A stretch of DNA of 64,000 nucleotides from Antedon mediterranea (GCF_964355755.1 NC_092673.1:19217648-19281647); one strand, 5' to 3'. Positions 3,001 to 49,700 are shown, counted from the first letter of the stretch. The notes: generated by a model from the sequence alone, not told the origin. A program made the numbers and translations.

Positions 3001-3126
3001 CAAATACAGGTAAATAGCAATCCAAAGCTTATGCCAAAGAAAAGAATAAGGAGGGCTCCTCACAAACTTTCAACCTGTGTAAAAACAAATATTTCATTGG
3101 GAAAACCCCATTCAATGAAAAAGTAA
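1..3126 (+). CDS. Mutator-like (MULE) DDE transposase with SWIM zinc finger; spliced, 5' part outside the window (exons <1-121, 801-1067, 1230-3126)
   Basis: GT-AG introns (AG|gtaaat after 121; tctatag|A at 801; CG|gtaagt after 1067; atcag|G at 1230) join in frame. N-terminal SKNTDCPA...HNHNH Zn-binding-like motif. MULE core motifs FIDSSG, FMTDD, CAFH (CxxH) and TNNYCE. SWIM motif CSCVVGRNGGPCKH. Confidence 0.88.
2520..2675 (+). repeat. 21-bp coding minisatellite (HPSTDEN) in the transposase C-terminal linker
   Basis: Repeated catccttcgactgacgagaacact-like units, in frame. Confidence 0.8.
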
Positions 3127-9333: not shown

Positions 9334-9508
9334 TGTAGTATATGCACGCGCACATATAATATATGCGTACTGCGCATATGCTCTGACGAGGTTAGCCTAC
9401 AAAACGTTCTATACTATTGTTCATGACTACTAGTTGGTTTCATTAAATACGTTCATTATTATACTCATCTCAACGTACTTATTAATTTGTCTACGACGAT
9501 ACACGACA
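9334..9508 (+). repeat. 5' LTR (175 bp)
   Basis: TGTAGTATATGCACGCG...GATACACGACA; matches 16078-16257. Confidence 0.96.
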
Positions 9509-9509
9509 C

Positions 9510-9522
9510 TGGCGACGAGGAT
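9510..9522 (+). promoter_or_regulatory. Primer-binding site, complementary to the tRNA-Ser(GCU) 3' end
   Basis: TGGCGACGAGGAT, 1 nt after the LTR, is the reverse complement of ATCCTCGTCG-CCA. Confidence 0.8.
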
Positions 9523-9685
9523 ACAGGCACATTTACATAGAGAGAAACGGAAGTATAATAATATTATAAAACTAGGCCTAGGCTAGCAGTTTTTGATTTT
9601 CCAACAACGGCAACCGTAACCAAGGAACCGCACAGGCTAATAACGATTCCGAGCGCCCTGAACGTACAGAGAGCGAAGCGCGGTA

Positions 9686-12600
9686 ATGGCAGCGGCTAAT
9701 ACCAGAATTCTATTCGAGGAATTCAACGTCCAGGATGGAGACATAGATACGTATGTGGACAGGCTGGAACAATATTTTGTGGCATTAGATATCAATGACG
9801 GAGGTAAGAAAAGAGCGATATTATTGAGTAGTTTAGGAGAGACTGGATACACAACGATACGAGATTTGTGTTTTCCTGATAAACCAAATACAAAATCGTA
9901 CGATACGCTCACAACCAAGCTCAAAGAGCTTTACAAACCTACTCGAATAACGATTTCTGAACGATTTATATTCAGAAATGTAAAACAGACACCGGGACAG
10001 ACTATTTCTCAATTTGTATCCCATCTAAAGAAAAAGGCGATACATTGTGGTTTTGAAGGAGAGGCATTGGAAAACGCACTGCGTGATCAGTTCGTATGTG
10101 GACTAATAAGTCAGAGCATCCAAAAAAAAAAATTGACAAAGAACCATACGTTCAAGGAAGCAACAGACATAGCCATAGCCTCGGAGGCAGCAACAGCGAA
10201 TATGAAAAGTATGTCGCACGATGGGGACAAGCCAATCAACCACGTTACGTCTAACAGCAGGAAGTCTACGAAAACTTATCAAGCGTCAAAACAAACACGA
10301 ACGCAGAAATGTGACCGCTGTGGTATGAACAATCATACAAGAGATACGTGTAAATACAAAAACGCTACATGCTTTAAATGCAACAAACAAGGACACCTAA
10401 AATCAGAATGCAGGCAGTCGAGTAAATCAACAAAACAATATAAACCTAAATCTATCAAGCAAGTAGAAGCACCGGATTACGACGAAGGTAATGACGATTT
10501 TGTAGATACAATGTTTTGCGTAGGCATTAAGCAGGACAATTCGGTACCACCAATAACGGTACAGATGCGAGTTGATGATATAGATATTGATTTTGAAGTA
10601 GATACGGGCGCAGCAGTATCGATAATTAGCTTTGACGATTACGAAAGCAAGCTTAGCCATCTACCATTAAAGTCAGTAAAACGTACACTTCACGCATACA
10701 CAGGTACTAAGCTCGATATAGCAGGAGAAATTAAAGTCACCGTGAACTATAGGGGCCAGAGTAACGTTCTCCCACTGATAGTAGTGAGAACACAGCGATG
10801 AAACTCACCACCCTTGCTTGGAAGAACCTGGTTAGAAGTGATTAAGTTGGACTGGAAGTCATTATTTCCACCATCGCTTGCTCAGAATTCGGTAGAAATA
10901 GATAACGATGTCGGTCAGTCATTCAAACGGAAGTTCCCAGAAGTTTTCCGAACGGAATTAGGTACGGTTCAGGGACACAAAGCGACATTACATCTAAAAG
11001 TGAACGCAATCCCAAAATTCTGCAAAGCTCGAAATGTTCCATTTGCGCTACGCTCCGCAGTTGAGGTAGAGTTAGACAGAATGCAAAACGAAGGAGTTAT
11101 TTATCCGGTAGACTTTAGTCAGTGGGCAACCCCATTGGTATGTATTCCAAAGGCCGATGGCAGGGTACGTGTCTGCGGAGATTATAAAGTAACAGTCAAC
11201 CCGAGTTTAAATTGCGACCAATATCCAATTCCGACCCCAGAGGAAGTTTTCACCAAGTTGGGAGGTGGAAAGCGATTCTCTAAGATTGATTTGAAATGTG
11301 CGTACCAGCAGTTAGTACTGGAAGACGAGGCGCAAGAGTTGGTAACGATCAACACGCACCGCGGATTATATCGATACACGAGGTTACCGTTTGGTATTTC
11401 GTCCAGTCCAGCCATATGGCAGCGATTCATAGAACAGGTGATAACAGGACTTAAAGGAACATGTGCGATCATGGACGATGTTCTTGTTACAGGTGCGTCT
11501 GATAAAGAGCATATTAGTAATCTTGAGAAACTATTTGAGAGATTTAACAAGTATGGTCTCAGAGTGAAAGCTGAGAAATGCGCGTTTGTACAAAAGGAAG
11601 TAGTCTACATGGGACGTAAGCTATCAGCAGCAGGAATTCAACCGACAAACGATAAAGTGAAAGCCATCAAGGATGCACGAGCACCACAGAATGCAACAGA
11701 ACTAAGATCCTGGCTAGGACTAGTTAACTATCACGCGTCATTTATTCCACGATTATCGACGATGATACATCCTTTGAATGAGCTGTTGGGAAGCAAACCA
11801 TGGTCATGGACTGTCGACTGTAGTAAAGCGTTTAACGCGGTAAAGCGAATTATTAGCGAAGACATGATGTTGACGCATTATGACCCATTAAAACCACTGG
11901 AACTATACACGGACGCATCACCGTACGGAGTTGGCGCAGTCATTTGCCACGTAAACGAGAACAATATCAAAACACCAATCGCGTACGCATCGCGAAGCCT
12001 GCATAAACACGAAAAGGGTTATGCACAACTAGACAAGGAAGCCCTAAGCATCATGTTTGGACTTCAAAGGTTTAGGACATACTTATACGGACGGAAATTC
12101 ACGATAAGAACTGATCATAAGCCACTTGAACGCATTCTAGGACCTAAATCAGCTATTCCGACACTGGCCGCACAGAGATTACAGCGATGGGCAATCGTGC
12201 TGTCAGCGTTCGAATACGATTTAAAGTTCATTCCTGGAAAACAGAACGTAACTGCCGACGCACTCTCACGTCTCCCAATGCCATACGAAGGACGGGAAGA
12301 CGATGCAGTATATAACATAGCGGGGCATACATTAGACAATTTGCCAGTCACGAGTACGAACGTACAACAGCATACCAGGAAAGACCCGCTATTGAGCAAA
12401 GTGTTATACATGGTACAGACAGGTTTATGGCAGTCAGAAAACGACGACGATCTAAAACCATTCCTACACCGAAGAGACGAATTGAGTGTAGAACAGGACT
12501 GTTTGCTGTGGGGATACAGGGTAGTGATTCCACCGAAACTCAGAGGGGCCGTTCTGGAGGAGCTTCATTGTGCTCACCCCGGAATCGTGCGTATGAAAGA

Positions 12601-13672
12601 GATTGCGCGAAGTCATGTCTGGTGGCCCCAGATAGATTCCGACATTGAACGATTGGTGAAGCAATGTCAAGCATGTCACCAAACACAAAGTCGACCAAGC
12701 GTAGCACCAATGATGCCCTGGATCTGGCCAAATCAGCCTTGGACACGAATACATATTGACTATGCGCAGAAAGATAAACGAGATTATCTAGTAGTGGTTG
12801 ACTCATATTCGAAATGGCCAGAAGTCGTTCAGATGAACAGTACGACGAGTGCAGCGACCATCAAAGCGATGAGAGAGTTGTTCAGTAGATACGGATTGCC
12901 TGTTCAACTTGTAAGCGATAATGGACCTCAATTTGTTAGCGACGAATTTGAATTCTTCTTAAAGCAAAACGGGGTGAAACATGTAAAGGTTGCACCTTAT
13001 CACGCCGCAAGCAACGGAGCAGCAGAACGAATGGTTCAATCTTTCAAAAGATCGTTAGCGGCAAGCCGAGCTAATGGGAAGGATTTCCAACAATGTTTGG
13101 ACAGATTTCTTTTATCGTATCGCACAACAAAACACGCAACTACGGGACAAACGCCAGCGAAGTTATTCATGGGCCGTGAGTTAAGAACGCGAGTATCACT
13201 TTTACATCCCAGTACAGAAAACAAGGTACTTAACAAGCAGAGTGATCAGAAGCTTCATCACGACAAAACGAAAGATCTACGAGAATTTTACCCAGGTGAA
13301 ATGGTATTAGTGAAAGATTTCCGACAAGAGGGAAAGTGGTGGCCAGGTACCGTGATAGAACGTACCGCTCCAAAATCATACGTAATTAGTGTTGAGGATG
13401 GCCGAGTGTGGAAAAGACACATTGACCAGTTGAAAGCGACAGACGCGGACGCTTACGCGAGTAAAACCCCTACTTCACATAGCGAGTTGGAACACAAGAT
13501 TAAACAGACAGTACCAATAACGATTGCGAGCGAAACGATTGCGAACAAAGAGCAAACATCCACCAACCAACCGGTTGAAGAGGAACATAGATTGTCTTCA
13601 TCGCCTGAGGTTATTCCACGACGCTCCACGCGACTTCGAAGGAAGCCAACACGACTTATCGAAGAGATATAG
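9686..13672 (+). pseudogene. Gypsy gag-pol polyprotein, single frame broken by one in-frame TGA (10799-10801) in the protease
   Basis: ORFs 9686-10801 and 10814-13672 share a frame (VVRTQR*NSPPLLGRTWL). Two CCHC knuckles (CDRCGMNNHTRDTC, CFKCNKQGHLKSEC), protease DTGA, RT LPFG and IMDD, RNase H TDAS...TDH, integrase HHCC plus IDY/SDNG/AER. Confidence 0.92.
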
Positions 13673-13741
13673 AACTTGTGAACAATGTTATTATTATGAA
13701 CGTTAAAGTTATGTTGTTCATGTTTTTACACAAAATTATAA

Positions 13742-15899
13742 CAGTGGGAAAGCCACTTCGCGTTTTGACCGTTATCGTGTAAAATCGACTTACTTCCGCA
13801 TTGACGATTTTGAAGCGCCACCTATCGTTGAAAACTGAAACCACGATTTTTCGTCGCCTAGCAAATAAGTGCTGTTTTATTTTAAGCTCTCATGAATATT
13901 TAAGAACCGCCCAACATTACCTATTATGGTAAAAGCATTTCCTAATAAGTATAATTGAATAACCAATCGGTTTCTTTCAAAGAAACCGAAGCTAATACAA
14001 TACATTCGGCGACTGAAGTCGGGACTCGTGAAATTTATAAATGTGGTACGATTTGACTACTGTTTTGTTGTCCATTTTCTGAATAGTCGGAGGTGCATCC
14101 CAACAAATTAAAACAATTATAATCAATTGTTTTATCAAGAATAATATTAGTTTAATCGAGTATGATATATTTCTATCCTGTTCAAAATTTGTTGGTGTAT
14201 TCTCAGGCCTCGAAAGGTAGGTACATTTTCTAGCTGTGAGCGTGGTTTCGGCAACGCGAGACACGTGTGTCAGTATAGGCGATAGCGAGACGTGTGTTGT
14301 ACTGTGTTGATGCTGATCCGATAGTCGTTAAGTTGTACTGATTACGAGTATCATTGGTCCTGGCCGGCCTAGCCTGGTGATCTGATCCCCCCAAAAAAAT
14401 ATTTTTTTCAATCAGTATTAATATATTATTTGATTTATTAGGCTCAATAGATGCCTAGCTAGGCTACTATTAGTAGGCCTAGGCCTAGATTATAAATAAT
14501 AATAGTAAATACTGTAATTTAATTAATAAAATACAGCTTCCATTTGCCTTACTTTTATGTCCTCATGTAATATTATAATTATATATACAACCAGACATTA
14601 ACATTTTTTAAAATAATATTTATTATTTTTTCTGACACTTTCAGGAATCGTTGATGATGCAGAGTTCTTTTTCTTTGTGACTTCAAACTGAGAGTGAAGT
14701 GGATAAAAAGATGACACCGGTACCTACCGACATTGTCATACCCAAACTATAATTTAATTATTTAAAACAAAATGTTGAATTACAAAAATGTATGTTGCAG
14801 AGGATTTAGATGAATATTACAATACAAATATTTATGTTGAATGCAAACCTACTACACTATACTCTGTAAATTATGTTATTGTCATGTGGTAGACCTTAAA
14901 AATTGAATATTTATTGTATGTTAGGCCTATTTTATATTTTATTATTATTAATACTGTATTAGTTTAATATTTATACTACAATGTATTAATTTATATTATA
15001 CAGTACTAGTTTGTACATGTTTTTACCCAAAAAAAATGAATAAATAATTTGTTATTCAATCTAATTGCTTGTTTGTTCATCAATAGCAAAACAATTGTAA
15101 GCAAGTATATAACAGTTCTTGTTAGCCGCTTATTTCAGGTCATATTATTAATATTAGCTAGGCCCGACGCGCCCGATCACAACGTCACTAAGTGACTTTC
15201 CGCCCCTGGAACAATCGCTGGCTAATAGGGCTAGGCCTCGGACTTGTATAAAAGCTATTATAATAGTTATGATAAATATTCCTCAACTAAAATGTATACT
15301 GTGATAAATAAACAAGTAATAATATACGTTGTATTGGAATGTATTTATTTATATGAATTCTTATACGCGGACAATTATAAACATCGCGTATATCGTTCGC
15401 TATAAATAAATTCATAAACACGATGACGATGAGTTTACAAAATGGCGGTTTCGCTAGTTTTCGATGGAACAAATAGTGGTACCTTTAGTTTGAATAGTCG
15501 GAGCTGCATCCCAACCACCGAATTTTGTATCTTAATATCGTATTCTGTAAATTATTAATTTTTCTAACAGGGATTTTAAATTCAGGACTGTTCAATTTTT
15601 CTAAACATTTTATTTTAATGATTTTCTAGGGTACAATTTCGGAAAAAAGACATTGGTTGATTTTGCCGTTAAATTACAGATTATCGTTTTGTTCAAATAC
15701 ATTTAATTTTACATGACAATATATTAAAACCATTTATGAATTTATTTCACTAACAATATTTTTCCGATAATCAGCTAAATTTACAAATATTGTGTTTTTC
15801 CAACACCCTAAAATTTAGCAATTTTCAACTAAATTAGAAAAGTAGGGCGCCCTCTCCGAGTCGAAATTTGACACGATTTGTCGACTGGCTGTCCCACTG
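13742..15899. mobile_element. Non-autonomous TIR DNA transposon nested in the 3' region of the Gypsy element; superfamily unassigned
   Basis: Left CAGTGGGAAAGCCA and right TGGCTGTCCCACTG form a 13/14 inverted match. 4-bp flanking duplication ATAA at 13738-13741 and 15900-15903. No long ORF. Confidence 0.78.
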
Positions 15900-16077
15900 A
15901 TAATGGTGAGAATTACTCACATTTGTTAATTATTATGAGGAACCAAATAAGAACTATCTGGAACTATAGAAGCAGTAATTTAATCACGATGATTAACCTA
16001 TTTGATTAACAAAATAATTAACGAAAGTTTATTGTGCTTATTGATATAATGTTAACGTTAAAATAAGAAAGGAGGAG

Positions 16078-16257
16078 TGTAGTATATGCACGCGCACATA
16101 TAATATATGCGTACTGCGCATATGCTCTGACGAGGTTAGCCTACAAAACGTTCTATACTATACTATTGTTCATGACTACTAGTTGGTTTCATTAAATACG
16201 TTCATTATTATACTCATCTCAACGTACTTATTAATTTGTCTACGACGATACACGACA
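16078..16257 (+). repeat. 3' LTR (180 bp)
   Basis: Identical to the 5' LTR by eye except for a 5-bp tandem duplication (ctatactatact vs ctatact). Confidence 0.96.
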
Positions 16258-19736: not shown

Positions 19737-22700
19737 TTAATCTATAATGTGTTGTTTCACAGGTCTACCTGAAAAAGAAATGAACAAAATAGATTTGGAG
19801 AAAGTCAAAGAAAAACTTTAACTTCAAGTTATTTTAAGGTTGCCTAATAAATACAGATTTTAACTGCATAAACAACTACATTCACTTAACATTGAAAGGT
19901 AATAATCACCTGAAGACACACCTGCATCAGAAGATGCACCTGCACCTAAAGACACACCTGCACCAGAAGACACACCTGCATCAGAAGACACATCTGCACC
20001 AGAAGACACACCTGCACCAGAAGATGCGCCAGCATCAGAAGACACATCTGCACCAGAAAATGCGCCCGCACCAGACGACACACCTGCACCAGAAGACACA
20101 CTTGCACCAGAAGATGTGCCTGCAACAGAAGACACACCTGCACCAGAAGATGCGCCTGCAACAGAAGACACACCTGCACCAGAAGACACACCTGTATCAG
20201 AAGACACACCTGCACCAGAAGACACACCTGCATCAGAAGACACACCTGCACCAGAAGATGCGTCTGCACCAGAAGACCCAGATGTGCCAGTACCAAAAGA
20301 CACACTTGCACCAGAAGACCCAGAAGTGCCAGTACCAAAAGACATGCCTGTACCAGAAGACATATATACTTATTTAGAATACATATAATTATGTAGAATA
20401 TGACTACTGGATGACTTCTGGATTTTTCAATCCACCTACAGTAGGATGGATGATGATTAAAAGAAGTGTTTCAGTAAGCTAATTGTCATTGAAACAAACT
20501 CTTAATTAGGAAATGTAAATAAACTGGGATAGGCAGAAGTGTTGATCTCTATATTTTTACAACATAATCTAAACTTAAGTTTATAATGGTTTAAGTGTCC
20601 GGCTGCATAAATTGGCACTGAGGTGGTGATGGGTACGCTGTCAACCTGTGGCTTTCTTATAAAACTTAATGATCCTCTTGCAATAGTAAAGGTTTGAACC
20701 AGCATCAGAGTAGATACTAATTTGACCCTGAAATGGTATGCTGGACCTTATAGGAATTAAGAGTCATTCACAAATTTAAAATGCAGATTATTATTATGTT
20801 CCAAAGGTTTGGGTCAATCTGATTTATAGGGATAATATCATGGAAAACAAACATACTTTTCATTTCAGCTCATTTTCAATTGGACTCATTGAGCATATTA
20901 TTGTTATTTTACTAACTTGTCATTCAATTCAGCTTAATTTCCATTTAACCGAATGTTGGTTGATATCCTTAATCCACTATAATAGCAGACAAACAGGGAC
21001 ATCATAATAATTTGAATCTGCCTAAAATGTTTAATTTGTTACAGTACTTTTACTTGATTGAAGTGTACTACAGTATGTACTGAATATGTTTTAACAATGA
21101 ACCATGATTTAAACAACAAATACAAACAAAAGCCAACCAACCATCAAAGAAAATCTTGGTGACCCACATCATTCCATTTCTTTCTAAAACATCAAGAAAT
21201 TTGATCATTTTTGTGAAATCCTCATCAATGATCCCTTTGTGTTCAAAGTCCATAATCAAACTCCAGCTGTTTGAATATCTCTTTACAAATTGTTTGTTGT
21301 AGAGGAAATCAAGTTTTGATACTTCATCCTCATTAAGTTCTTCTCCCAGCTGATAAATATTCTGTCTGAAAGGTGTCAACATCGATGATACCACATGCTC
21401 CTTAATGTTTTCTGGAGGTTGATTCTCAACATTTGACTTAAAGCCAAACTGCTGGGTTACCTTTACTGTGTCATACAGAAGAGTAAGATTTGATGGACTC
21501 AAACTTCCAGAGGCTGTTAAATCATGTAGTAGATCCCAAACACTATTAGCTCTCTCCACCTCCACTCTAGATTTCTTCAGATGGTCTTTGTATAAAAGTT
21601 TCAATTTCTTGAGATATCCAAGTCGATCATACCACTCTGCTGTATCAGTCAACAGTTGCCAGAAATCCTCATCTGAGATGTCTATAATGCAAAGACATAC
21701 AACCATTATAATTCAGGTTTTAAAAACATGCACAAAAATGTCAGTAGCTTCATCTATATTAATAGTAGAAAGTAGAATGAAAGAAATAACAATTTCTAAA
21801 AAGATCTTTAAGAAAACAGATATTATTAAAGATATTTAGTCTGAAAAACAATGTATAAACATTTTTTTTGTGTCATTTTAATGTCACATATAGCTATTCA
21901 CTTTGAGTTTGATCAAAAATTGGATTGAAAACCACATAATTTATACCTGAATAAAAATAGTAAAATTGTGGGTTTTTGGTTGAATTTACGAAAGACAGAC
22001 CATAGACCATTTCTTTTGTAGCTCCGTGTTTATAACAGTTTGTTTTTGTTTATCATTATTCTAAACTAATGACAATGGCTGGTGATTATTTGGGAAATTG
22101 ATCTTTGAACCATTTACCTAAACCCAGTTAATATTTGAATATTATTCGATAAGAATAAAACAATTGATGACCATTTTGGCACACATAATTAATGTCTACT
22201 TTACCTTGGTTTGATTCTTCTTTCTTTGGAGGTTTTCTTCCATCTTGAAAAGTAGTAGATATATGAAAAATTGTAAACAACAATAACCTTTTTTTTAAAT
22301 TGTAAACAAGTTTAAAATTACTAGCTCAGGTTCACTATTTAAGATTTTACACTGTCGTGATATTATTGTTTTTTTACCATTTTATCTTTATTATTGTCAG
22401 CGCATGATTTATAATTGATGAGTTCAGTTCTTTTCTGAAAGTCACTGCTTTTAGCCATTATTTACTTTGATTTCACCATAAACAATTCATGCACTTTCAG
22501 ATCGATGTGCCAAGAGCAACTGAGTAGCTTGTTTTTATATCAGCAATGACATTTACAATAGATACAGTAAAAACATGAAGTAATTGGTAAATATCTTGAA
22601 ATAAGGTCAAAATTATTCAAGCTTCACTGGAGTTAGCTCCATGGGGCTAGTTAAGGTGGAGTATGCACGCCATACGTGTGAAGAGGCCCTAATTATTTAT

Positions 22701-34700: not shown

Positions 34701-37700
34701 AAATTGTTTGCCTCGATTGCGAATACATATTTTAAATAATACCATTATATATAAAATAGATTACATTTAAAAAAAAAATATTCTACATTTACATTTATAT
34801 GCAATTAATAAAGTTCAAATATTCCTTAACAATGCGCATCCCGTGTATTTGTCTATACAGGATTTTTATTAATTTTATTAATTTATTTTTTGTATGTTTT
34901 TTTTGTAACTAGCTTATAGTGGTCCTTTTATCACAAGTCCCTTTGGGTTTCTTGGAGGTCCTTTTCATCTTCACATCTTTAATTTGTTTATGTATAATTG
35001 TTTTGATGTATTGATGAATAAAGAGATTGATTTGATGTGAAAAATGACGTTCCATAAAAAAAAAGTGTGGCCAAATTTATTCAATATTGTTAATTCAAAG
35101 GAATTTTAAAGTTTGCATTTTTGTGTATTTTTATCGTAATGGCAAAATAATTTTTCTAATTTATTTGCAATTTTCAAATCATAAAAAATAAGGTTTTTAC
35201 ATCTTGCAACATATCACAACTTCCATGTTTACTACAATCCCAGTGGATTATTTAATCTATTGCCATCTGAACCTGTGAATGATATCATAAATGTTAATTT
35301 TCTTTATCTGGACAGTCTTCTTCATTTGGGACAAAAAATCAAATCTTTATCGTTTGTAATGAAAACTAGTTGATTCCAAAATTTTAATAATTAAAACTTC
35401 ACTTACTTTTAAAGAAGTTTAAAATTTCAGTTTTTCTCTGGTACCCTATCCACCTGTTACTTTCTAAAACAGAGACAGGTGTATTTCCATCCTATTAAAA
35501 AATGGGTGTAGTTACTTAGTAGTTTTTGAGAAATTATTGATATACAATATAACACACTTTAATACGCATCACATACATACAGTCATGGCTCAAACATTTA
35601 CCATCTAGAGATTGGATGAAAGAGCATCATGTGATAACACGTAGATTTACTATTTTTTAACATTGGTTGTAAATTAGGACGTGAATAGAAATTACTATTT
35701 GCCAATAAATGACATCAACTTGTACAGTGCGCCACCTATAACTCCTGTATCCAAACCAAAACTTAAGCGCTGCCGTTTATAGTCTACCGCCTTCAACATT
35801 GAGAGAGAGAGAGAGAGATAAATTGAATAAAAGTTTACTTTGGAACAGTAGGTAAATGTGTTAAAATGTTTGAGCCATAATATAAAACAACAAATAGTTT
35901 TACTATAAACTTTCAAAGAAAATAATATTTGGATACTATCCAGATACAAATGAAATATTAAAACAACAACAACACATTACAATTATAGTTGACTTATAAA
36001 TGAATATCTAAATCAAAACAAACTTGTTAGAATGTGCTATGTGTAAAAAGAGAAAAATGTGAAAAAAATCAAACACTTGAGAATTCTATATCTGTAAGTC
36101 TGATTAAATAATACTACTCTTTGAGGTAGTAATACTATTGATTAATATGGAGGCTAATTGATACTGAAGTTGAAGTTTATAAATACTGATAACAATAAAA
36201 TGTGAAATTGTCCTGACAATTCTTTGTAAGCCTACATTACCCTATTTTGCAATGCTGCAGATATACCATAATATGAGACAATACAGTAAAAATTACTGCT
36301 AAATAATGTGGTAAACCAGAACAAACTAGATTTGAACTCGTCACTTTGACGAGTTCGGGTTATCCGCGCAAACGCAACATGCACATATTTTAAACTATAT
36401 TATGAACTTCGACAATTATTATGCCATCCTATGACATGAATTAAGAATGTTTACAGTGCTGAATTGTACCTATTTTGTAGCATACAGCATATTACAGTGT
36501 TTACAGAATACACTGTATGTTATATACAGTGTAGAATAGACGAAATTACGAGACCCATCTTTTAAATCCAATTATTAACACGATGACGTCATCAAATTGG
36601 CATATAAAGATAACAATTTTAGAAGATAATTATCTAAATAATTACATTAATACAAATTTTAAGAATTTTGGGCACGTGAAAGTGAGATGCGCTCTCGTTT
36701 AAACGCAATGAACGTTTACGCAAGAGATGAAAATATGACTTTTTGAATTTAACTGGCCATATGATGACATCACAACATCTGATTGGCAAAATATTCACAT
36801 GAATTCGTATCTACAATCCAATATCTTCCAGAAAACGTTTTAATCATGATTATCACTTTTTATTCTGACGAGCTATAACCGATTGAAATTTACTGTAAAG
36901 ATAAAAATAAGTGACCCAAATTATTTATATTTTTAGACATGATGACGTCATAAAAATTAAAATATTTTTAACTCATGCGAAAGATAGTTGATTGACCTAG
37001 ACAGTATTAGAATATATGAGAAAATGGAATACGTATAAGCGATATGCGCTCTATTTAATGTAATGAGCAATAACGAAACAGTCAAAAATCCAATATTTTA
37101 CATTTGTGTGGCCATACGATGACGTCATAACATCTGAGGGGTAAAGATTGTGCATGAATTCATATCTACAACATATCTGCTTACATATTAAATTAAAAAA
37201 ATTGGGGGTAACGGTTGATCCTGAGGAGCTATAATAGATTAAAAATAGGCATAATTTTGACAATATGTTGTCACTTTTGCAACTAAAACGCGCGCAAATG
37301 GTGTAAATCAACGTGTTCGTATGACGTCATTTTAATTTGAAATGATGTCAATCTTTTTTAAAATGACTAAGAAAGGCTGTAAAATCATAATTCAAGAGAA
37401 AAACACATGATTTTCATGCTCCGTGCGCACCTTACGCGTAATTTTTTTTGCGCGCGTGGGAATTTTTTACATGCTTAAAATGTCATGATCAGCGTAGAAA
37501 GTTGATTAGAAATTAATTTTGCGCATTTTGAATTTTTAAATGCGCGTGCGCGCGTAACTTCTTGTAAAACATGCCATTTTTAATCCATAGAAAGTTTGCC
37601 CATGATATGACTTAAATTTTCACCAAGTGTCAAAACAAAATAACTTTTGGTTTATAATCTATGACCAATCATTGAAATTCATAAAATCGCGCGTAAGTCA

Positions 37701-40700
37701 CGTTGCGCAACTCTGACATCATTCAAAATATGGAGGTGCACAACTTCAGGTAAATGTCCATATGATGAAAAAGTTATATATATGATATAGTCACAAGCAA
37801 TAGGGGATATGCTGCGCACAAAAATCCGGGAAAGAAAGAAGAACTAGACATGAAACTCGTCACATTGACGAGTTAGTTATCCGCACCACGACAAACGCCA
37901 CGTGCACGTCATACGTTGGAATATTGCACACAGATAAAGATTATGGCATTATGACAAGAACTGAAGAATATGCTGAATTCTGTCAATTTTGTGTCATATA
38001 GTATATACATGCAAACAGTATAATCTGTATACATATTACATACAGTGTAGAATAGGTGAAATTACGGGACCCGCCATTTATTCCAATTTTTAACATGGCG
38101 ACGGTATCAAAATGAAACACTTGGATAGCAATTTCAGAAGGAAATTATCTCAGGAACAACATATTAACGTGTAGAAGAAATTTGAACACGTAAAATATAG
38201 ATGCGTACCCTTTTAAATGTGATGAACTATTACGCAAAATATGAAAATACGTCTTTTTTTATTCAACTGGCCATATGATGACGTCACAACATCCGATTGG
38301 CAAAATGTTTACATGAATTCGTATCTACAATCCAATAGCTTCCAGAAAACGTTTTAATCGTGATTATCACATTTTATTCTGATGAGCTATAACAGATTAA
38401 AATTTACTGTAAAGATAAATATAAGTGACCCACGTTATTTACATTTTTAGACATGATGACGTCCTAAAAATTAAAAAAAATTTTACTCATGTGTAAAATA
38501 GTTGATTGACCTAGAAAATGTCAAAATCTGGGTTAAAATGGAATACGTATAAGTGGAGAGGGGCTCTATTAAATGAGATGCGCTATGACGAAAGATACAA
38601 AAATCCTATATTTTACATTCGTGTGGCCATACGATGACGTCATAACTTCCGAGAGGTAACAATTCTGCATGAATTTATATCTACAATTTATCTTCTTACA
38701 TAATAAGTTAAAACAAATTGGGGTCACCTTTGATCCTGACGAGCTATAATAGATTCAAAATAGGCATAATTTTGACAATATTTTGTCACTTTTGCAACTA
38801 AAACGCATGCAAATGGTCTAAATCAACGTGTACGTATGACGTCATTTTAACTTGAAATGATGTCAATCTTGTTTAAAATGACTACGAAAGGCTGGACACT
38901 CAAAATTCAAGAAAAAAAACATGGTTTTCATACTCCGTGCGCCCCTTACGCGTAAATTTTTTCGCGCGCGTGGGAATTTTTGACATGCTCAAAATGTCAT
39001 GATCAGCGTAGAAAGTTGATTAGAAATTAATTTTGCGCATTTTGAAATTTTAAATGCGCGTGCGCGCGTAACTTCTTGTAAAACATGCCATTTTTAATCC
39101 ATAGAAAATTTGCACTTGATATGACTTAAATTTTCACAAATTGTCAAAACAAAATTACGTTTGGTTTTTAATCTATGGTCAATCATAAAAAATCATAAAA
39201 TCGCGCGTAAGTCACGTTGCGCAACTCTGACGTCATTCAAAAATAGGAGGTGCACAACTTCACGTATATGCCCATATGTTGACAAAGTTATGAAATGTTA
39301 TGTTTACAAGTTTTTGAGATACGTGAGACACAAAAATGGGGGAGAAAGAAATAAGAAACTAGACATGAAACTCGTCACTTTGACGAGTTAGTTATCCGCT
39401 CGACAAACGCCACGTGCACGTCATACGTTAGAATATTGCACACAGAAAAATATTAAGGCATTATGACCTGAACTGAAGAATATGATATGTTGTTATTTCT
39501 GAATTCTGTTATTTTGTGTCATATAGTATACACAGTACAATCTGTATACATATCACAAACAGTGTAAAATAGGTGAAATTACGGGACCCGTATTTTATTG
39601 TAATTTTTAACATCTTGACGGTTTCAAAATGAAATGCAAAAGTAGAAATTTCTGAATGAAATTATCTCAGCAACAACATATTAACGTATAGAAGAAATTT
39701 TAATACGTGAAATATTGATGCACGCTCTTTTAAATGTAATGAAATATAATGCAAAAGATGAAAATACGACTTTTTTTATTTAACTGGCCATATGATGACG
39801 TCACAACATTCGATTGCCACAATTTACACATGATTTTGTATCTACAATAAAATAGCTTCCTGAAAACGTTTTAATCGTGATTATCACATTTTATTCTTAC
39901 GAGGTATAACAGATTAAAATTTAATGTAAAGATAAAATTAATGACCAACGTAATTTAAATTTTTAGGCATGATGACGTTAAAAAAATTAAAAAAATTTTA
40001 ATTCATGCAAAAGATAGTTGATTGACCTAGAATATATTAAAATCGGGGTGAAAATAGACAACGAATAAGTGGAGATGCGCTCTATTAAATGTGATGAGCT
40101 ATGACGAAAGAGACAAAAATCCTATATTTTATATTGGCGTGGCCATACGATGACGTCACAATGTCCGGTTAGCCATATTAATGCATGATCCGATATTTAC
40201 AACTCATCAACTTCCAGAATATGTAATTAAAAAAAAGTTCTCCATGTAGTTTAGAATCTATGACTGTTTAAAAATAGGCATAATTTTGACGAATTTTTGA
40301 ACTTTTTCACCAAAAACGCGTGCAAATTATCTAATTCGACGTGCTCGTATGACGTAATTTTAAGTCGAAATTGTTTAAAATTTGGTAACATTACTAGAAA
40401 AGGCTGAAAAAACATAAATCACGCGAAAAAAATATGTTTTTAACGCTACGTGTGCACCGCGTGCGTAAAAATTTTCGCGCGCGTGGGAATTTTTGACATG
40501 CTCAAAATGACATGAAACGCATAGAAAGTTGATTAGAAGTTGATCTTTCGTATTCTAAAATTTTAAACGCGCGTGCGCGCGTAACTTTTTGTGAAACATG
40601 CTATTTTTAATCCATAGAAAGTTTGCGCTTGATATGACTTAAATTTGCACAAAGTGTCAAAACAAAATTATGTTTCGTTTTTAGTCTATGATCAATCATT

Positions 40701-43700
40701 GAAATTCATAAAATCGCGCGTAAGTCACGTTGCGCAACTCTGACGTCATTCAAAAATAGGAGGTGCACAAGTTCACGTAAATGTCGTTATGTTGACAAAG
40801 TTACGATATGTTCTGTTTACACGTTTTAGAGAAACGCGACGCACAAAAATGACAGAAGGAAAGAAGAATAATACAGAAAAAAAAAAAAAATATGATGAAA
40901 CAGGACGATTACAAGGAGTTATCCGCTACTAAGCGGATAACTAAAAAAAAAAGTAACAGGACGATTACAAGGAGTTATCCGCTGCTATGCGGATAACTAA
41001 CTAGACATGAAACTCGTCACTTTGACGAGTTAGTTATCCGCACGACAAACGCCACGTGCACGTCATACGTTGGAATATTGCACACGGAAAAAGATTATGG
41101 CATTGTGACCTGAACTGAAGAATATGATATGTTTTTATTGCTGAATTCTGTTATTTTGTGTCATATAGTATACACAGTACAATCTGTATACATATCACAT
41201 ACAGTGTAGAATAGGTGAAATTACGGGACCCGCTATTTATTCAAATTTTTAACATATTGACGGTTTCAAAATGAAACGCGAATGTAGCAATTTCGGAAGG
41301 AAATTATCTCAGCAACAACATATTAACGTGTGGAAGAAATTTGAACACGTGAAATATTGATGCGCGCTCTTTTAAATGTAATGAACTATGACGCAAAAGA
41401 TGAAAATACGACTTTTTTTATTTAACTGGCCATATGATGACGTCACAACATCCGATTGGCAAAATGTTTACATGATTTCGTATCTACAATCCAATAGCTT
41501 CCAGAAAACATTTTAATCGTGATTATCCCATTTTGTTCTTACGAGCGATAACAGATTAAAATTTACTGTAAAGATGAAATTAATGACCCAAGTAATTAAC
41601 ATTTTTAGGCATGATGACGTTACAAATATTAAAATATTTTTAACTCATGCGAAAGGTAGTTGATTGACCTAGACAATATTAAAATCTCGGAGAAAATGGA
41701 ATACGGATAAGCGTGATGCGCTCCATTGAATGTGATGAGCAATAACGAAAGAGACAAAAATCCTATATTTTATATTCGTGTGGCCATACGATGACGTCAA
41801 AATGTCCTGTTAGCCATATTAATGTATGATTTGATATCTACAACTCATCAACTTCCAGAATATGTAATAAAAATAACTTTCACCGTTTAGTTTAGAAACT
41901 ACGACTGTTTAAAAAAAGGCATAATTTTGACGATTTTTTTAGATTTTTGATCAAAAACGCGCGTAAATTTTTCAATTCGACGTGCTCGTATGACGTAATT
42001 TAAAGTCACAAATGGTTTTAAAATGGCAAAATTACTCTAGAAGGCTGGAAAAACATAATTCATGAGAAAAAAAGATGTTTTTCATGGTACGTGGCCACCG
42101 CGCGCGTAAAAAAATGCGTGCACGTGGGAATTTTTGACATGCGCGAAATGTCATGAGTCGTGTAAAAAGTTGATTAAAAATTAATTTTACGCATTTTGAA
42201 ACTTTAAATGCGCGTGCGCGCGTAACTTCTTGTAAAACATGCCATTTTTAATCAATAAAAAGTTTGCACTTGATATGACTTAAATTTTCACAAAGTGTCA
42301 AAACTAAATTATGCTTGGTTTTTAGTCTATGAGCAATCATAAAAAATCATAAAATCGCACGTAAGTCACGTTGCGCAACTCTGACGTCATTCAAAAATAG
42401 GAGGTGCACAACTTCACGTAAATGCCCATATGTTGACAAAGTTATGAAATGTTATGTTTACCCAATTTAGAGATACGCTCTGCACAAAAAGTGAGGGAGA
42501 AAGACAGAAGAATAATACTAGACATGTAACTCGTCACTTTGACGAGTTAGTTATCCGCACGACAAACGCCACGTGCACGTCATACGTTAGAATATTGCAC
42601 AGAGAAAAAATTATGGCATTATGACTTGATCTGAAGAATATGATATGTTGTTAGTGCTGAATTCTGTCAATTTTGTGTCATATAGTATATACATGCAAAC
42701 AGTATAATCTGTATACATGTTACATACAGTGTAGAATAGGTGAAATCACGGGACCCGCCATTTATTCAAATTTGTAACATGGCGACGGTATCAAGATGAA
42801 ACACTAAGATAGCAATTTCGGAAGCAAATTATCTCAGCAACAACATATTAACGTGTAGAAGAAATTTGAATACGTTTAATATTGATGCGTGCTCTTTTAA
42901 ATATAATGAACTATGATGCAAAAGATGAAAATACGACTTTTTTTATTTAACTTGCAATATGATGACGTCACAGCATCTGATTGGCAAAATGTTCACATGA
43001 TTTCATATCTACAATCCAAGAGCTTCCAGAAAATGTTTTAATCGTGATTATCACATTTTATTTTGACGGGCTATTACAGATTAAAATTTACTGTAAAGAT
43101 GAAATTAATGACCCACGTAATTAAAATTTTTAGGCATGATGACGTCATAAAAATTAAAATATTTTTATCTCATGCGAAAGATAGTTGATTGACCTAGACA
43201 ATATTAAAATCTCGGAGAAAAAGAAATACGTATAAGCGTGATGCGCTCCATTGAATGTGATGAGCAATAACGAAAGACAAAAAAATTCTATATTTTACAT
43301 TCGTGTGGCCATATGATGACGTCACAACATCCGTGAGGTAAAAATTCTGCATGAATTCATATCTACAACATATCTGCTTACATATTAAGTTAAAAAAATT
43401 AGGGGTAATCGTTGATCCTGAGAAGCTATAAAACATTCAAAATAGGCATAATTTTGACAACATTTTGTAACTTTTTCAACTAAAACGCGCGCAAATGGGC
43501 TAAATCAACGTGTTCGTATGACGTAATTTTAATTTGAAATGATGTCAATCTTTTTGAAAATGACTAGGAAAGGCTGGAAAATCACAATTCAAGAGAAAAA
43601 AACATGATTTTCATGCTCTATACGCACCGTGCGCGTAATATTTTTCGCGCGCGCGGTAATTTTGTACATGCTTAAAATGACATGAAACGCGTAGAAAGTT

Positions 43701-46700
43701 GATTAGAAATTATTTTTGCGCATTTTGAAATTTTAAATGCGCGTGCGCGCGTAACTTTGTGTAAAACACGCAATTTTTTTCAAACAGAAAGTTAGCGCAT
43801 GATATAAATTAAACTTTCACAAAGTGTCAATTAAAAATCACTTTTAGTTTTTAATCTATGATCAATCATAAAAAATCATAAAATCGCGCGTAAGTCACGT
43901 TGCGCAACTCTGACGTAATTCAAAAATAGGAGGTGCACAACTTCACGTAAATGCCCACATGTTGTCAAAGTTATAAAATGTTATGTTTACACATTTTAGA
44001 GAAACGCTCTACACAAAAATAGCGAGAAAGAAAGAAGAACTAGACATGAAACTCGTCACTTTGACGAGTTAGTTATCCGCACAACGACAAACGCCACGTG
44101 TACGTCATACGTTTGAATATTGCACACAGATAAAGATTATGGCATTATGACAAGAACTGAAGAATATGATAGGCTGTTAGTGCTGAATTCTGTCAATTTT
44201 GTGTCATATAGTATACATGCAAACAGTATAATCTGTATACATATTACATACAGTGTAGAATACTGTAGGTGAAATTACTAGACCCGCCATTTATTAAAAT
44301 TTTTAACATGGCGACGGTATCAAAATGGAACACTTAGATAGCAGTTTCGGAAGGAAATTATCTCGGTAACAACATATTAACGTGTAGAAGAAATTTGAAT
44401 ACGTAAAATATAGATGCGCGCCCTTTTAAATGTGATGAACTATTACGTAAAATATGAAAATACGACTTTTTTTATTCAACTGGCCATATGATGACGTCAG
44501 AACATCCGATTGGCAAAATGTTTACATGAATTCGTATCTACAATCCAATAGCTTTCAGAAAACGTTGTAATCATGATTATCACTTTTTATTCTGAGGATA
44601 TAACACATTGAAATTTACTGTAAAGATGAAAATATGTGACCCACGTTATTTACATTTTTAGACATGATGTCGTTAGAAAAATTAAAATATATTTAACTCA
44701 AGCGAAAGATAGTTGATTGACGGAGACAATATTAAAATCTCGGGGGAAATGGAATACGTATAAGCGAGATGCGCTCTGTTGAATGTGATGAGCAATAACG
44801 AAAGAGACAAAAATCCTATATTTTACATTCGTGTGGCCATACGATGACGTCACAATGTCCGGTTAGCCATATTGATTCATGATCCGATATCTACAACTCA
44901 TCAACTTCCAGAATATGTAATTAAAAAAAAGTTTACCTCGTAGTTTAGAATTTATGACTGTTTAAAAAAAGGCATAATTTTGACAAATTGTTGAACTTTT
45001 TCATTAAAAAGGCGTGCAAATTGAACAATTCGACGTGCTCGTATGACGTAATTTTAAGTAGAAATTGTATAAAAATTGGTCAAATTACTATAAAAGGCTT
45101 ATAAAACATAATTCACGCCAAAAAAAGATGTTTTAGCGCTACGTTCGCCACCGCGCGCGTAAAAATTTGCGCACACATGGGAATTTTTTACATGCGCAAA
45201 ATGTCATGAATCGCGTAAAAAGTTGATTAGAAATTATTTTTGCGCAATTTGAAATTTTAAATACGCGTGCGCGCGTAACTTCTTGTAAAACGTGCCATTT
45301 TTAATCCACAAAAAGTTTGCCTCTGATATGACTTAAATTTTCACAAAGTGTCAAAACAAAATTATGCTTGGTTTTTAGTCTATGATCAATCATAAAAAAT
45401 CATAAAATCGCGCGTAAGTCATGTTGCGCAACTCTGACGTCATTCAAAAATAGGAGGTGCACAACTTCACGTAAATGCCCATATGTTGACAAAGTTATGA
45501 AATGTTATGTTTACAAGTTTTTGAGATACGTTCTGCACAAAAATGGGGGAGAAAGAAAGAAGCAGAAAAAGATCCAGGACGATTACAAGGAGTTATCCGC
45601 TCAATGCGGATAACTAATAATACAGAAAAAAATATTGATCCCATACAATAACAAGGAGTTATCCGCCAAGTGCGGATAACTAACTAGACATGTAACTCGT
45701 CACTTTGACGAGTTAGTTATCCGCACGACAAAGGCCACGTGCACGTCATACGTTAGAATATTGCACACAGAAAAAGATTATGGCAATATGACCTGAACTG
45801 AAGAATATGATATGTTGTTATTGCTGAATTCTGTTATTTTTTGTCATATAGTATACAATATAATCTGTATACATATATTACATACAGTGTAGAATAGGTG
45901 AAATGACTGGACCCGCCATTTATTCCAATTTTTAACATGGCGACGGTATCAAAATGAAACACTAAGATAGCAATTTCGGAAGGAAATTATCTCGGCAACA
46001 ACATATTAATGTGTAGAAGAAATTTAAATACGTAAAATATTGATGCGCGCTCTTTTAAATGTAATAAATTATGACGCAAAAGATGAAAATACGACTTTTT
46101 TTATTTAACTAGTCATATGATGACATCACAACATCCGATTGGCAAAATTTTCACATGATTTCCTATCTACAATCCAATAGCTACTAGAAAACGTTTTAAT
46201 CGTGATTATCACATTTTATTCTTACGAGCTATAACAGATTAAAATTTACTGTAAAGATGAAATTAATGCCACACGTAATTTAAATTTTTAGGCATGATGA
46301 CGTCATAAAAATTAAAATATTTTTAACTCATGCGAAAGATAGTTGATTGACCTAGACAATATAAAAATCGGGGTGAAAATGGAAAACGGCTAAGTTGAGA
46401 TGCGCTCTATTAAATGTGATGACCTATAACGAAAGATACAAAAATCCTTTATTTTATATTTGCGTGGCCATACGATGACGTCATAATGTCCGGTTAGCCA
46501 TATTAATACATGATCCGATATATACAACTAATCAACTTCCAGAATATGTTATCCACAAAAAGTTGACGGTGCAGTTTAGAAATTACGACTGTTTAAAAAA
46601 AGGCATAATTTTGACAAATTTTTGAACTTTTTCATTAAAAAAGCGCACAAATTGTTCAATTCGACGTGCTCATATGACGTGATTTTAAGTCGAAATTGTT

Positions 46701-49700
46701 TAAAAGTTGATAAAATTACTAAAAAAAGCTATAAAAACATAAATCACGAGAAAAAAATATGTTTTCAACGCTACATGCGCACCGCGCACGTAAAAATTTG
46801 CGGGCGCGTGGGAATTTTTGACATGCTTAAAATTACATGAAACGCGTAGAAAGTTGATTAGAAATTAATTTTGCGCATTTTGAAATTTTAAATGCGCGTG
46901 CGCGCGTAACTTTGTGTGAAACATGCCATTTTTAATCCACAGAAAATTGACTCTTGATATAAATTAAATTTTCACCAAGTCTCAATACAAATCGACTTTT
47001 GGTTTTTAATCTATGATCAATCATTTAAATTCATAAAATTGCGTGCAAGTCACGTTGCGCAACTCTGACGTTTTTCAAAAATAGGAGGTGCACAACTTCA
47101 CGTAAATGTCTATATTTTGACAAAGTTACGATATGTTCTGTTTACACATTTTAGAGAAACAGGGCTCACAAAAAAAGGAAGAAAGACAGAAGAATAATAC
47201 AGAAAAGGAAAAAGATCCCATACAATAACAAGGAGTTATCCGCCAAGTGCGGATAACTAATAAAATTGAAACAGGACGATTACAAGGAGTTATCCGCTAC
47301 TAAGCGGATAACTAATAAAGATGAAAAAAAAAAAGATTTTTACAATAACAAGGGTTATCCGCAACTTCTAAGTTGCGGATAACCAAATAGAATAGAATGT
47401 TAGCCTATTACACTAGCAAATCCCTGTACATTTACCTTATTTTGCAATGCTACTGGTGTCCCATGCTGAAAGAGACAAGTCACTATTTCTAAGGTAGGTG
47501 CAGTATATCCAATCCCCAGATATGAATGTAATGGAGTGTCACCATACTGGAAAGGAATCGTAATGAAGTTTATAAATACTGACAACAGACATTATGTGAA
47601 ATTGTTTGTTTTTTGGTAAATACAAACAACAACAATTACTGCTAAATATTGTGGTAAATAATCATAATTATTATTATTAATAAATGAGTAGAACAAAATA
47701 GAATGGTTTACCACAGCATATCTATAGAATGTTAGCCTATTACACTAGCAAATCCCTGTACAATACCTTATTTTGCAATGCTACTGGTGCCCCATGCTGA
47801 ATGAGACAAGTCACTATTTCTAAGGTAGGTTTAAATCCACTCCCCAGATATGAATGTAATGGAGTGTCACCATCCTGGAAAGGAATCATAATAAAGTTTA
47901 TAAATACTGACAACAGACATTATGTGAAATTGTTTGTTTTTTGTCAATACAAACAACAACAATTGCTACTAAATATTGTGGTAAATAATCATAATTATCA
48001 TTATTAATAAATGAGTAGAACAAAATAGAATGGTTTACCACAGCATATCTATACAATGTTAGCCTATTACACTAGCAAATCCCTGTACATTACCTTATTT
48101 TGCAATGCTACTGGTGCCCCATGCTGAATGAGACAAGTCACTATTTCCAAGGTAGGTCTATATCCTCTCCTCAGATATAAATGTAATGGAGTGTCACCAT
48201 TCTGGAAAGGAATCATAATGAAGTTTATAAATACTGACAACAGACATTATGTGAAATTGTTTGTTTTTTTTGTCAATACAAACAACAACAATTGCTACTA
48301 AATATTGTGGTAAATAATCATAATTATCATTATTAATAAATGAGTAGAACAAAATAGAATGGTTTACCACAGCATATCTATAGAATGTTAGCCTATTACA
48401 CTAGCAAATCCCTGTACATTTACCTTATTTTCCAATGCTACTGGTGCCCCATGCTGAATGAGACAAGTCACTATTTCTAAGGTAGGTGTATATACACTCC
48501 ACAGATAGTAATGTAATAGAGTTTTATCATCCTGGAAAGGAATCATAATCAAGTTTATAAATACTGACAACAGACATTATGTGAAATTGTTTGTTTTTTG
48601 TTAATACAAACAACAACAATTGCTGCTAAATATTGTGGTAAATAATCATAATTATCATTACACGTCACTATTTCTAAGGTAGGTTGTGTATATTCAATCC
48701 TCAGATATGAATGTAATGGAGTGTTACCATCCTGGAAAGGAAAGCATTTTTTTGTAAGGTAAGAGAGGGAGCAGGTTATTAATTAATAATTATTTGTTAT
48801 TAAAATCAGATTCTATTAATTTTTTGTAACATAAACCTTTTTTATTTGTTATTTTATTATTAATCAATGTAGTCCCATTTTATTTCATCTTTACAATTAA
48901 TTAGACCATTGTCAATCATTGTTATCTTTACAGCTACATATGACCAATTTATATTTGTTTTACGGTCAAAAATATTTAAACAAAATTATACTGATTCACC
49001 TGTATAAAAAATTACAAGTAGATTGTTTTTGTTCATTAAGAAAAAAGATAAATGTTATATGATGGATAACTGTATACTTTAAATCAGTTATCATAAATCA
49101 TATATAACTGTTTAGTTATTATTTTAATTTGGTTTCTTTTAATAAAATTTGATTTTTGTTAATGGGCTTACTTTAGCCTATTACTTAATGTAAGTTATTA
49201 TTCATGTACACTGCCTTATTTTGCCATGTTACTGAACTACGCTGTGTGAGACATGTTACTATTTCTAAGGTAGGTACTGAATACATATACAAATATGCAT
49301 GTAATGGAGTGTCACCATCTTTCTTTCGCAATGTTGCTGGTGTATAATATTGACAACAGACATTATGTGAAAATGGGGTTTTTTTGTCAACCCAAACCAT
49401 AGCAAGAATTACTGCTAAATAATGTGGTCAATAATAATAATAATGAGAACAAAATAGAATATGGTAGAGAAAGTTGGTACATCCTTTCAGTACTGATTTT
49501 TAACACCCAATGAAACCAATATCATAATTAAGTTAAGTTAGATATTAACGATAACAAATTTAATTTAAACCATTTGCCTTGATGAAAATCATATCATATC
49601 ATGAAGCCCGATACCATCCCATCATCAAATGTACCAAGACAGGAATTTGGTGAACAATACCATGTAATAAACAAAATTAAGGTAATTCTCAGGATGACAA

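Follow-up and report, generated by a model that had tools for sequence, protein, structure and literature searches.

Seven nested Helitron2/HINE-type elements in Antedon mediterranea point to repeated self-insertion near resident 5′ ends

Results

Seven elements in a four-level nest

A 64,000-nt window of Antedon mediterranea (GCF_964355755.1 NC_092673.1:19217648-19281647), by which we mean the whole stretch of DNA analysed, contains a nest of seven non-coding transposable elements of the Helitron2/HINE type, all lying in a single orientation on the minus strand. An end search recovered exactly seven left and seven right ends, all inside 36325-47386, and no further copy of the nested family elsewhere in the window. 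The left ends, which carry the terminal CTAG, lie at 36326, 37844, 39359, 41001, 42518, 44040 and 45684, and the right ends, which given the minus-strand orientation are the 5′ hairpins, finish at 40944, 41000, 45617, 45683, 47260, 47315 and 47386. These 14 ends parse as ((())((())())), i.e. (1 (2 (3)) (4 (5 (6)) (7))), a nest of four levels in which each 5′ end is paired with its own 3′ end. Three terminal types were distinguished and are concordant in all seven left-right pairs, a result that 1 of 105 distinct orderings would match (p=0.0095). After removal of inner copies the units measure 1571-1589 bp, a uniformity that wrong pairing of the ends need not produce. The same brackets, the agreement of terminal variants in all seven pairs and the start of the unit 1 right end at 47353 had been proposed in a sequence-only reading of the window, and all three were recovered here; the place of the nest also stood, with its limits refined from 36325..47384 to 36326-47386, subject to a one-base ambiguity.

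The outermost copy, unit 1 (36326..47386; own sequence 36326-37843 and 47316-47386, 1589 bp), represents a distinct subfamily with G-variant asymmetric inverted repeats (ATIRs) of 10 bp. Unit 2 (37844..41000; own sequence 37844-39358 and 40945-41000, 1571 bp) lies in the T-rich tract of unit 1, with the join 71 bp from the unit 1 5′ end, and itself carries the intact unit 3 (39359..40944, 1586 bp) in its own tract, 56 bp from its 5′ end. Unit 4 (41001..47315; own sequence 41001-42517 and 47261-47315, 1572 bp) also occupies the unit 1 tract, where its 3′ end abuts the 5′ end of unit 2. The unit 4 tract, in turn, holds unit 5 (42518..45683; own sequence 42518-44039 and 45618-45683, 1588 bp), joined 55 bp from the unit 4 5′ end, as well as the intact unit 7 (45684..47260, 1577 bp), whose 3′ end abuts the 5′ end of unit 5. 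The intact unit 6 (44040..45617, 1578 bp) lies in the unit 5 tract, 66 bp from the unit 5 5′ end. Zero bases separate the members of the pairs 2|4 and 5|7, which form exact head-to-tail junctions between the 3′ CTAG of unit 4 and the 5′ end of unit 2 (40995..41006, minus strand, at 41000/41001) and between the 3′ CTAG of unit 7 and the 5′ end of unit 5 (45678..45689, minus strand, at 45683/45684), so that the six inner copies occupy four tract sites. At the right edge the 5′ ends of units 7, 4 and 1 stand as a triple stack (47216..47386, minus strand) of ATIR hairpins with 10-14 bp stems. It had been claimed that every insertion lies in the tract just inside a resident 5′ hairpin; this describes the four tract joins (55-71 bp), whereas two further copies, units 4 and 7, sit directly against the 5′ end of a sibling.

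Anatomy and classification

On the minus strand each unit begins with TT and an ATIR of 10-14 bp, followed by a hairpin, a short T-rich tract, a non-coding body of ~1.45 kb, a second ATIR, a stem-loop of 9-10 bp and CTAG. The 5′ ATIR lies 0 bp from the 5′ end in six of the seven units and 2 bp in unit 1, and the 3′ ATIR 29 bp from the 3′ end in six and 32 bp in unit 1, which also shows an identical A-to-G change across all three copies of the ATIR repeat. All seven units have a 5′ hairpin using the 5′ ATIR (-10.0 to -15.7 kcal/mol, DNA parameters), a 3′ stem-loop and, as in HINE/DINE-1-like elements, a degenerate short T-rich tract behind the 5′ inverted repeat. Unit 7 provides examples of the 3′ end (45684..45726, minus strand), in which a 9-10 bp stem-loop and CTAG follow the ATIR at 29 bp from the terminus, and of an intact target tract (47160..47216, minus strand), which is GAAA/AAT-rich on the plus strand. 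From the canonical HLE1 group the units share the 3′ hairpin with a CTRR-type terminus (CTAG, 7/7) but not the 5′ TC without terminal inverted repeats, given that 5′ TT and ATIRs are found in all seven. None of the 18 open reading frames of at least 120 amino acids in the window overlaps the nest, and no central tandem repeats were detected by TRF; unit 6 holds two copies of ~185 bp at 70% identity. Target-site duplication is absent, the longest overlap being 0-3 A/T bases at five of five sites. The element-host boundary is ambiguous by one base, with an end at CTAGT giving T|T at four of the five sites and an end at CTAG giving A|T at three and T|T at two, so that insertion at T|T, as expected of Helitron2, and at A|T are indistinguishable.

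The nested units are non-coding Helitron2/HINE-type elements and, as such, ordinary HINEs. The seven units fit both the Helitron2 definition (Bao and Jurka 2013, PMC3627910) and the layout of HINE/DINE-1 elements (PMC4067079; PMC7492417), and the ATIR positions, hairpins and stem-loop agree with the earlier naming of the elements as Helentron-type. The elements are also CpG-rich (observed/expected 1.60, vs 0.62 in the remainder of the window). They hold 38 TGACGT-type words against 9 outside, a word that we take to resemble a CRE site.

Divergence between units

Pairwise identity between units is 77-88% (84.0% for the abutting pair 2|4 and 85.1% for 5|7), indicating neither tandem amplification nor a concatemer. 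A concatemer or satellite has near-identical head-to-tail neighbours; here head-to-tail contacts occur at two of the six inner junctions, and neighbours differ by 12-23%. The middles of the units split 1, 2, 5 against 3, 4, 6, 7 (32 sites), cutting across the terminal types, and the bodies are mosaic, with an incompatibility of 0.281 compared to 0.503 in 2000 shuffles (p<=0.0005). Private substitutions number 25-37 in each of units 2-7 and 118 in unit 1; their use as dates was rejected, since subfamily mosaicism means that they give no unit ages. Interior gene conversion would be expected to yield mosaic bodies with linked end types, as would recombination on circles, in which the two ends adjoin.

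Uninterrupted tracts in public sequence

Five public sequencing runs contain the stretch, of which X2-X4 come from one sample and X1 from a different organism. In a first comparison, 15 of 370 joints were listed. Among these, a joint from 42516 to 47260 corresponds to the uninterrupted unit 4 tract in three of four runs (depth 3252, 652 and 527 in X2-X4), and a joint from 37844 to 47318 to the uninterrupted unit 1 tract in X2 (one of four runs, depth 724); both have shorter sides of 20-29 letters and most likely represent paralogous copies. In a second comparison, a loose end before 45616 in six X3 contigs (agreement 0.71) and an X1 joint from 45530 to 45616 probably fit an intact unit 5 tract. 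Two X4 joints (45617 to 45566 and 45680 to 45575) are nested configurations absent from the window, and fit right ends inserted ~52 bp into unit-6-like and unit-2-like tracts. A near head-to-tail joint also occurs in X1. No rejoined unit 2 tract was found among the 15 joints, and none of the contigs listed spans the whole locus or bridges a window junction with 31 letters per side. Contigs identical to portions of units 2 and 5 reach depths far above those of the long unique contigs, suggesting young subfamilies, although contig depth is not copy number.

Nesting through insertion as such is regarded as very probable, and repeated self-insertion is well supported. The view that the locus grew as nests rather than as rolling-circle concatemers, put forward in the sequence-only reading with near-identical neighbours named as what would refute it, is upheld by the 77-88% identity and by the uninterrupted tracts in public contigs.

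Loose ends at 45716 and 42550 reveal a related subfamily in both organisms, with a shared 3′ ATIR and a different 3′ stem-loop. Metagenome scans with the 3′ end and the 5′ hairpin returned 0 loci.

Host site of unit 1

The nest interrupts a diverged unit of a host 327-bp repeat (left flank 36170-36325), 3.9 copies of which, with splice-donor-like words, lie at 47392..48660 on the plus strand. The 15 bp formed by joining the two flanks of unit 1 are found uninterrupted in repeat units at 47690, 48017 and 48346 and in another copy at 49446, and these four occurrences are paralogous empty sites without target duplication. Public contigs of the left flank depart from the window sequence at 36330, with one other letter, which fits an empty site and also another left-end type at the same place. 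In X3 the left flank has a depth of 579 compared to 22-45 for long unique contigs, so that the flank looks multi-copy in the public sample. A joint from 35958 to 47903, with roughly half the depth of the flank, was considered as a haplotype lacking the nest, a reading rejected as unproven because the flank looks multi-copy and resembles the 327-bp repeat.

Target choice within and outside the elements

Because the T-rich tract is the richest T/pyrimidine stretch of the element, position and sequence are confounded. Candidate sites were counted by context. A/T|T sites in the elements fall within the first 110 nt (the head) in 230 of 5373 cases. A loose context of at least 12 T in 20, which fits all five targets, places 304 sites in the elements, 99 of them in heads and 205 in other parts, and another 1731 in window sequence outside the elements, while a strict T/pyrimidine-rich context, which fits three of five targets, gives 71 element sites, 64 of them in the first 110 nt, and 184 outside the elements. 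These counts mean that T-richness accounts for the landing spot inside elements, not for the choice of elements. A 12-mer beside two of the joins (at most one mismatch) occurs seven times in the nest and once outside, and covers two of the five sites.

A growth model with feedback was run in 12 settings, assuming a genome of 300-600 Mb, 2,000-15,000 copies and equal weight per site. Without an extra boost it gave at most 0.005 expected seven-member head nests in 12 of 12 settings, and about one nest required ~10-20% of all insertions to fall in heads, a boost of 3- to more than 100-fold depending on the setting. Under these assumptions the model would argue against T-richness alone, and a sharper sequence preference may supply part of the boost.

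Surroundings of the nest

The window is AT-rich (GC 28-44%) and animal-like, with many minisatellites. At 9334-16257 lies an element whose reading frames we presume to be Gypsy-like, flanked by direct repeats of ~175 bp (9334-9508 and 16078-16257, 97%) and surrounded by a 62-bp tandem array; a stop at 10799-10801 separates the two long frames of the element. An open frame of 637 amino acids with a MULE transposase domain (Pfam) is located at 1213-3126, and at 21068-21712 on the minus strand two death effector domain stretches (PF01335) lie in an exon that is probably part of an immune-type gene. Between 50809 and 56189, three separate arrays of one 71-bp repeat are 93-97% alike, with a hairpin-like match near 53962.

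Discussion

Relation to known Helitron-like elements

The seven units resemble the HINE/DINE-1-like non-autonomous Helentrons (Thomas et al. 2014, PMC4067079), including the oyster Cg_HINE (PMC7492417), in being non-coding with subterminal inverted repeats, in having a 5′ inverted repeat with a short microsatellite behind it and a 3′ stem-loop, and in using T-rich targets without target duplication. They differ in that no long central tandem array, a feature of some HINE families, was detected beyond the two ~185-bp copies, in ending in CTAG and, compared to the available HINE descriptions, in carrying nests in the microsatellite. With Helitron2/HLE2 (PMC3627910; HELIANO, PMC11417382) they share a hairpin-forming 5′ ATIR at 0-2 bp from the terminus and a 3′ ATIR that precedes a hairpin and lies ~30 bp from the opposite terminus, with compensatory changes in unit 1. 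Unlike those elements, the nest contains no RepHel, and where Xenopus HelenXT233 has two different 5′ ends in direct repeat (PMC11417382), we observe seven complete balanced copies instead of a doubled 5′ end. In Fusarium, FoHeli elements with multiple 5′ termini and the first 31-85 nt duplicated have been attributed to self-insertion (Chellapan et al. 2016, PMC5148889), which also describes one Fusarium element that inserted 2 bp upstream from a 5′ terminus, together with two Metarhizium insertions into one 5′ end. Insertion into or just upstream of a resident 5′ terminus is common to both systems, but the fungal cases, described anecdotally, mostly combine many 5′ termini with one 3′ terminus, whereas every 5′ end here has its own 3′ end. 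The abutting pairs are similar to double insertion dimers (McGurk and Barbash, bioRxiv 10.1101/158386), in which two insertions at one site give head-to-tail pairs; the dimers of P, hobo, jockey and R1 come with target-site duplications, in contrast to the present nest, where there is no duplication and most copies lie inside a resident. Nesting together with telomere targeting is invoked in a Paramecium study (PMC13085455), and the parts covered of a wheat Helitron paper (PMC13286980) hold no self-insertion data. Titles and abstracts in the literature, with subscription journals thinly covered, yielded no balanced multi-level nest and no measurement of head targeting. Self-insertion near 5′ ends thus has precedent, and depth, balance and fixed spacing make this nest a stronger variant of it.

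How the nest may have grown

Guidance of insertion by the resident terminus is likely. As to mechanism, we lean, with somewhat better than even confidence, towards an unseen RepHel transposase that gathers on the resident 5′ hairpin and joins incoming copies one by one at a T-rich site beside it. For Helitron transposases, nicking at the 5′ end and circles with exact head-to-tail junctions have been described, and HUH/Helitron transposases cleave single-stranded targets and favour AT-rich surroundings; both statements concern a canonical Helitron (PMC4778049), and de novo insertion data in the available Helitron literature come from canonical Helitrons only. In this proposal, copies from different subfamilies would arrive independently, the T-rich sequence would choose the nucleotide, and a transposase sitting on the resident 5′ end, where it normally nicks, would open the adjacent tract and increase the rate. 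The two exact head-to-tail joints would result where a copy entered right at the 5′ boundary. Since each insertion would add a new hairpin and tract and leave the resident termini intact, nests would grow by feedback.

The same arrangement might arise with no role for the hairpin, if the transposase simply prefers the TTC/TAT-rich sequence that each copy has beside its 5′ hairpin and every insertion regenerates a half-site. HINEs favour T-rich targets (PMC4067079; PMC7492417), a Chlamydomonas Helitron2 inserts after TTTT (PMC3627910), a lepidopteran Helitron-like element is said, in the title of the paper, to disrupt (GAAA)n microsatellites, other transposons are known to insert twice at one site (bioRxiv 10.1101/158386), and one 12-mer, rare outside the nest, is common to two of the four tract joins. 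This tight motif, however, covers two of the five target sites only, while the context fitting all five has 17 times as many sites outside the elements as it has in heads (1731 vs 99) and would need a boost of ~30-fold or greater, and we hold such a carried target to be unlikely, if still a serious competitor. An improbable alternative is that the pairs 2|4 and 5|7 derive from circle intermediates recombining into a resident, or that a ready-made nest moved as a composite. Both abutting joints are exact, circle-type and type-matched (2/2; ~1 in 9 by chance from the type counts in the window), the bodies are mosaic with ends still linked, and the left-flank contigs leave the window sequence at 36330, so that in that sample the flank does not usually carry the nest. 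The four tract joins are left unexplained by either route and head targeting would still be required; moreover, mobilisation from an outer 5′ end has been proposed to halt at the first 3′ end, leaving orphan heads (PMC5148889), of which there are zero among the seven and seven ends here. Tandem amplification, a rolling-circle concatemer or an assembly error mimicking a nest could draw on the ~1.5-kb periodicity, the two exact head-to-tail joints and the lack of a spanning contig among those listed, but the 12-23% difference between neighbours largely refutes it, the 5′ ends in the stack pair off in reverse order, each with a matching variant, and uninterrupted tracts exist in public contigs, making this explanation highly improbable.

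Several observations weigh against the gathering of a transposase on the resident hairpin. The concentration of strict-class element sites in the first 110 nt (64/71) leaves position and sequence confounded, and this class, which three of the five sites meet, needs a 3-fold boost only, at 15,000 copies in 300 Mb; the 12-mer at two joins is likewise concentrated in the nest (7 vs 1 outside). Regenerating a T-rich half-site is also enough to account for the abutting insertions. Unit 1 itself entered host DNA at a T-rich place that has no neighbouring hairpin, and several long public contigs with unique flanks represent dispersed copies. In addition, this is a single locus chosen for its pattern, the genome size and copy number of the model are assumed, and an autonomous partner, which should encode an HLE2-clade RepHel for Helitron2 and, as a Helentron, an endonuclease domain for HINEs, was not seen, no frame of at least 120 amino acids overlapping the nest. 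The earlier proposal that the transposase is guided to existing termini accordingly stands in part: insertions do cluster at 5′ ends, but the position of the tract is confounded with its sequence in a group reported to prefer T-rich targets.

Implications

In the balanced nest, cut positions can be placed to the base with respect to the 5′ hairpin, which makes hairpin guidance versus sequence preference directly testable. The nest also orders subfamilies in time and suggests how doubled 5′ ends originate, and such nests risk mis-annotation as 1.5-kb satellites. As a tentative generalisation, which we rate at somewhat less than an even chance, Helitron2/Helentron transposases may use the resident 5′ hairpin as a landing pad, directing at least a tenth of insertions into heads and building last-in-first-out stacks. 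If this is true, the origin of transposition would double as a preferred target, and element-directed insertion would be a general safe-harbour strategy of animal HLE2, with stacks recording the order of subfamily activity.

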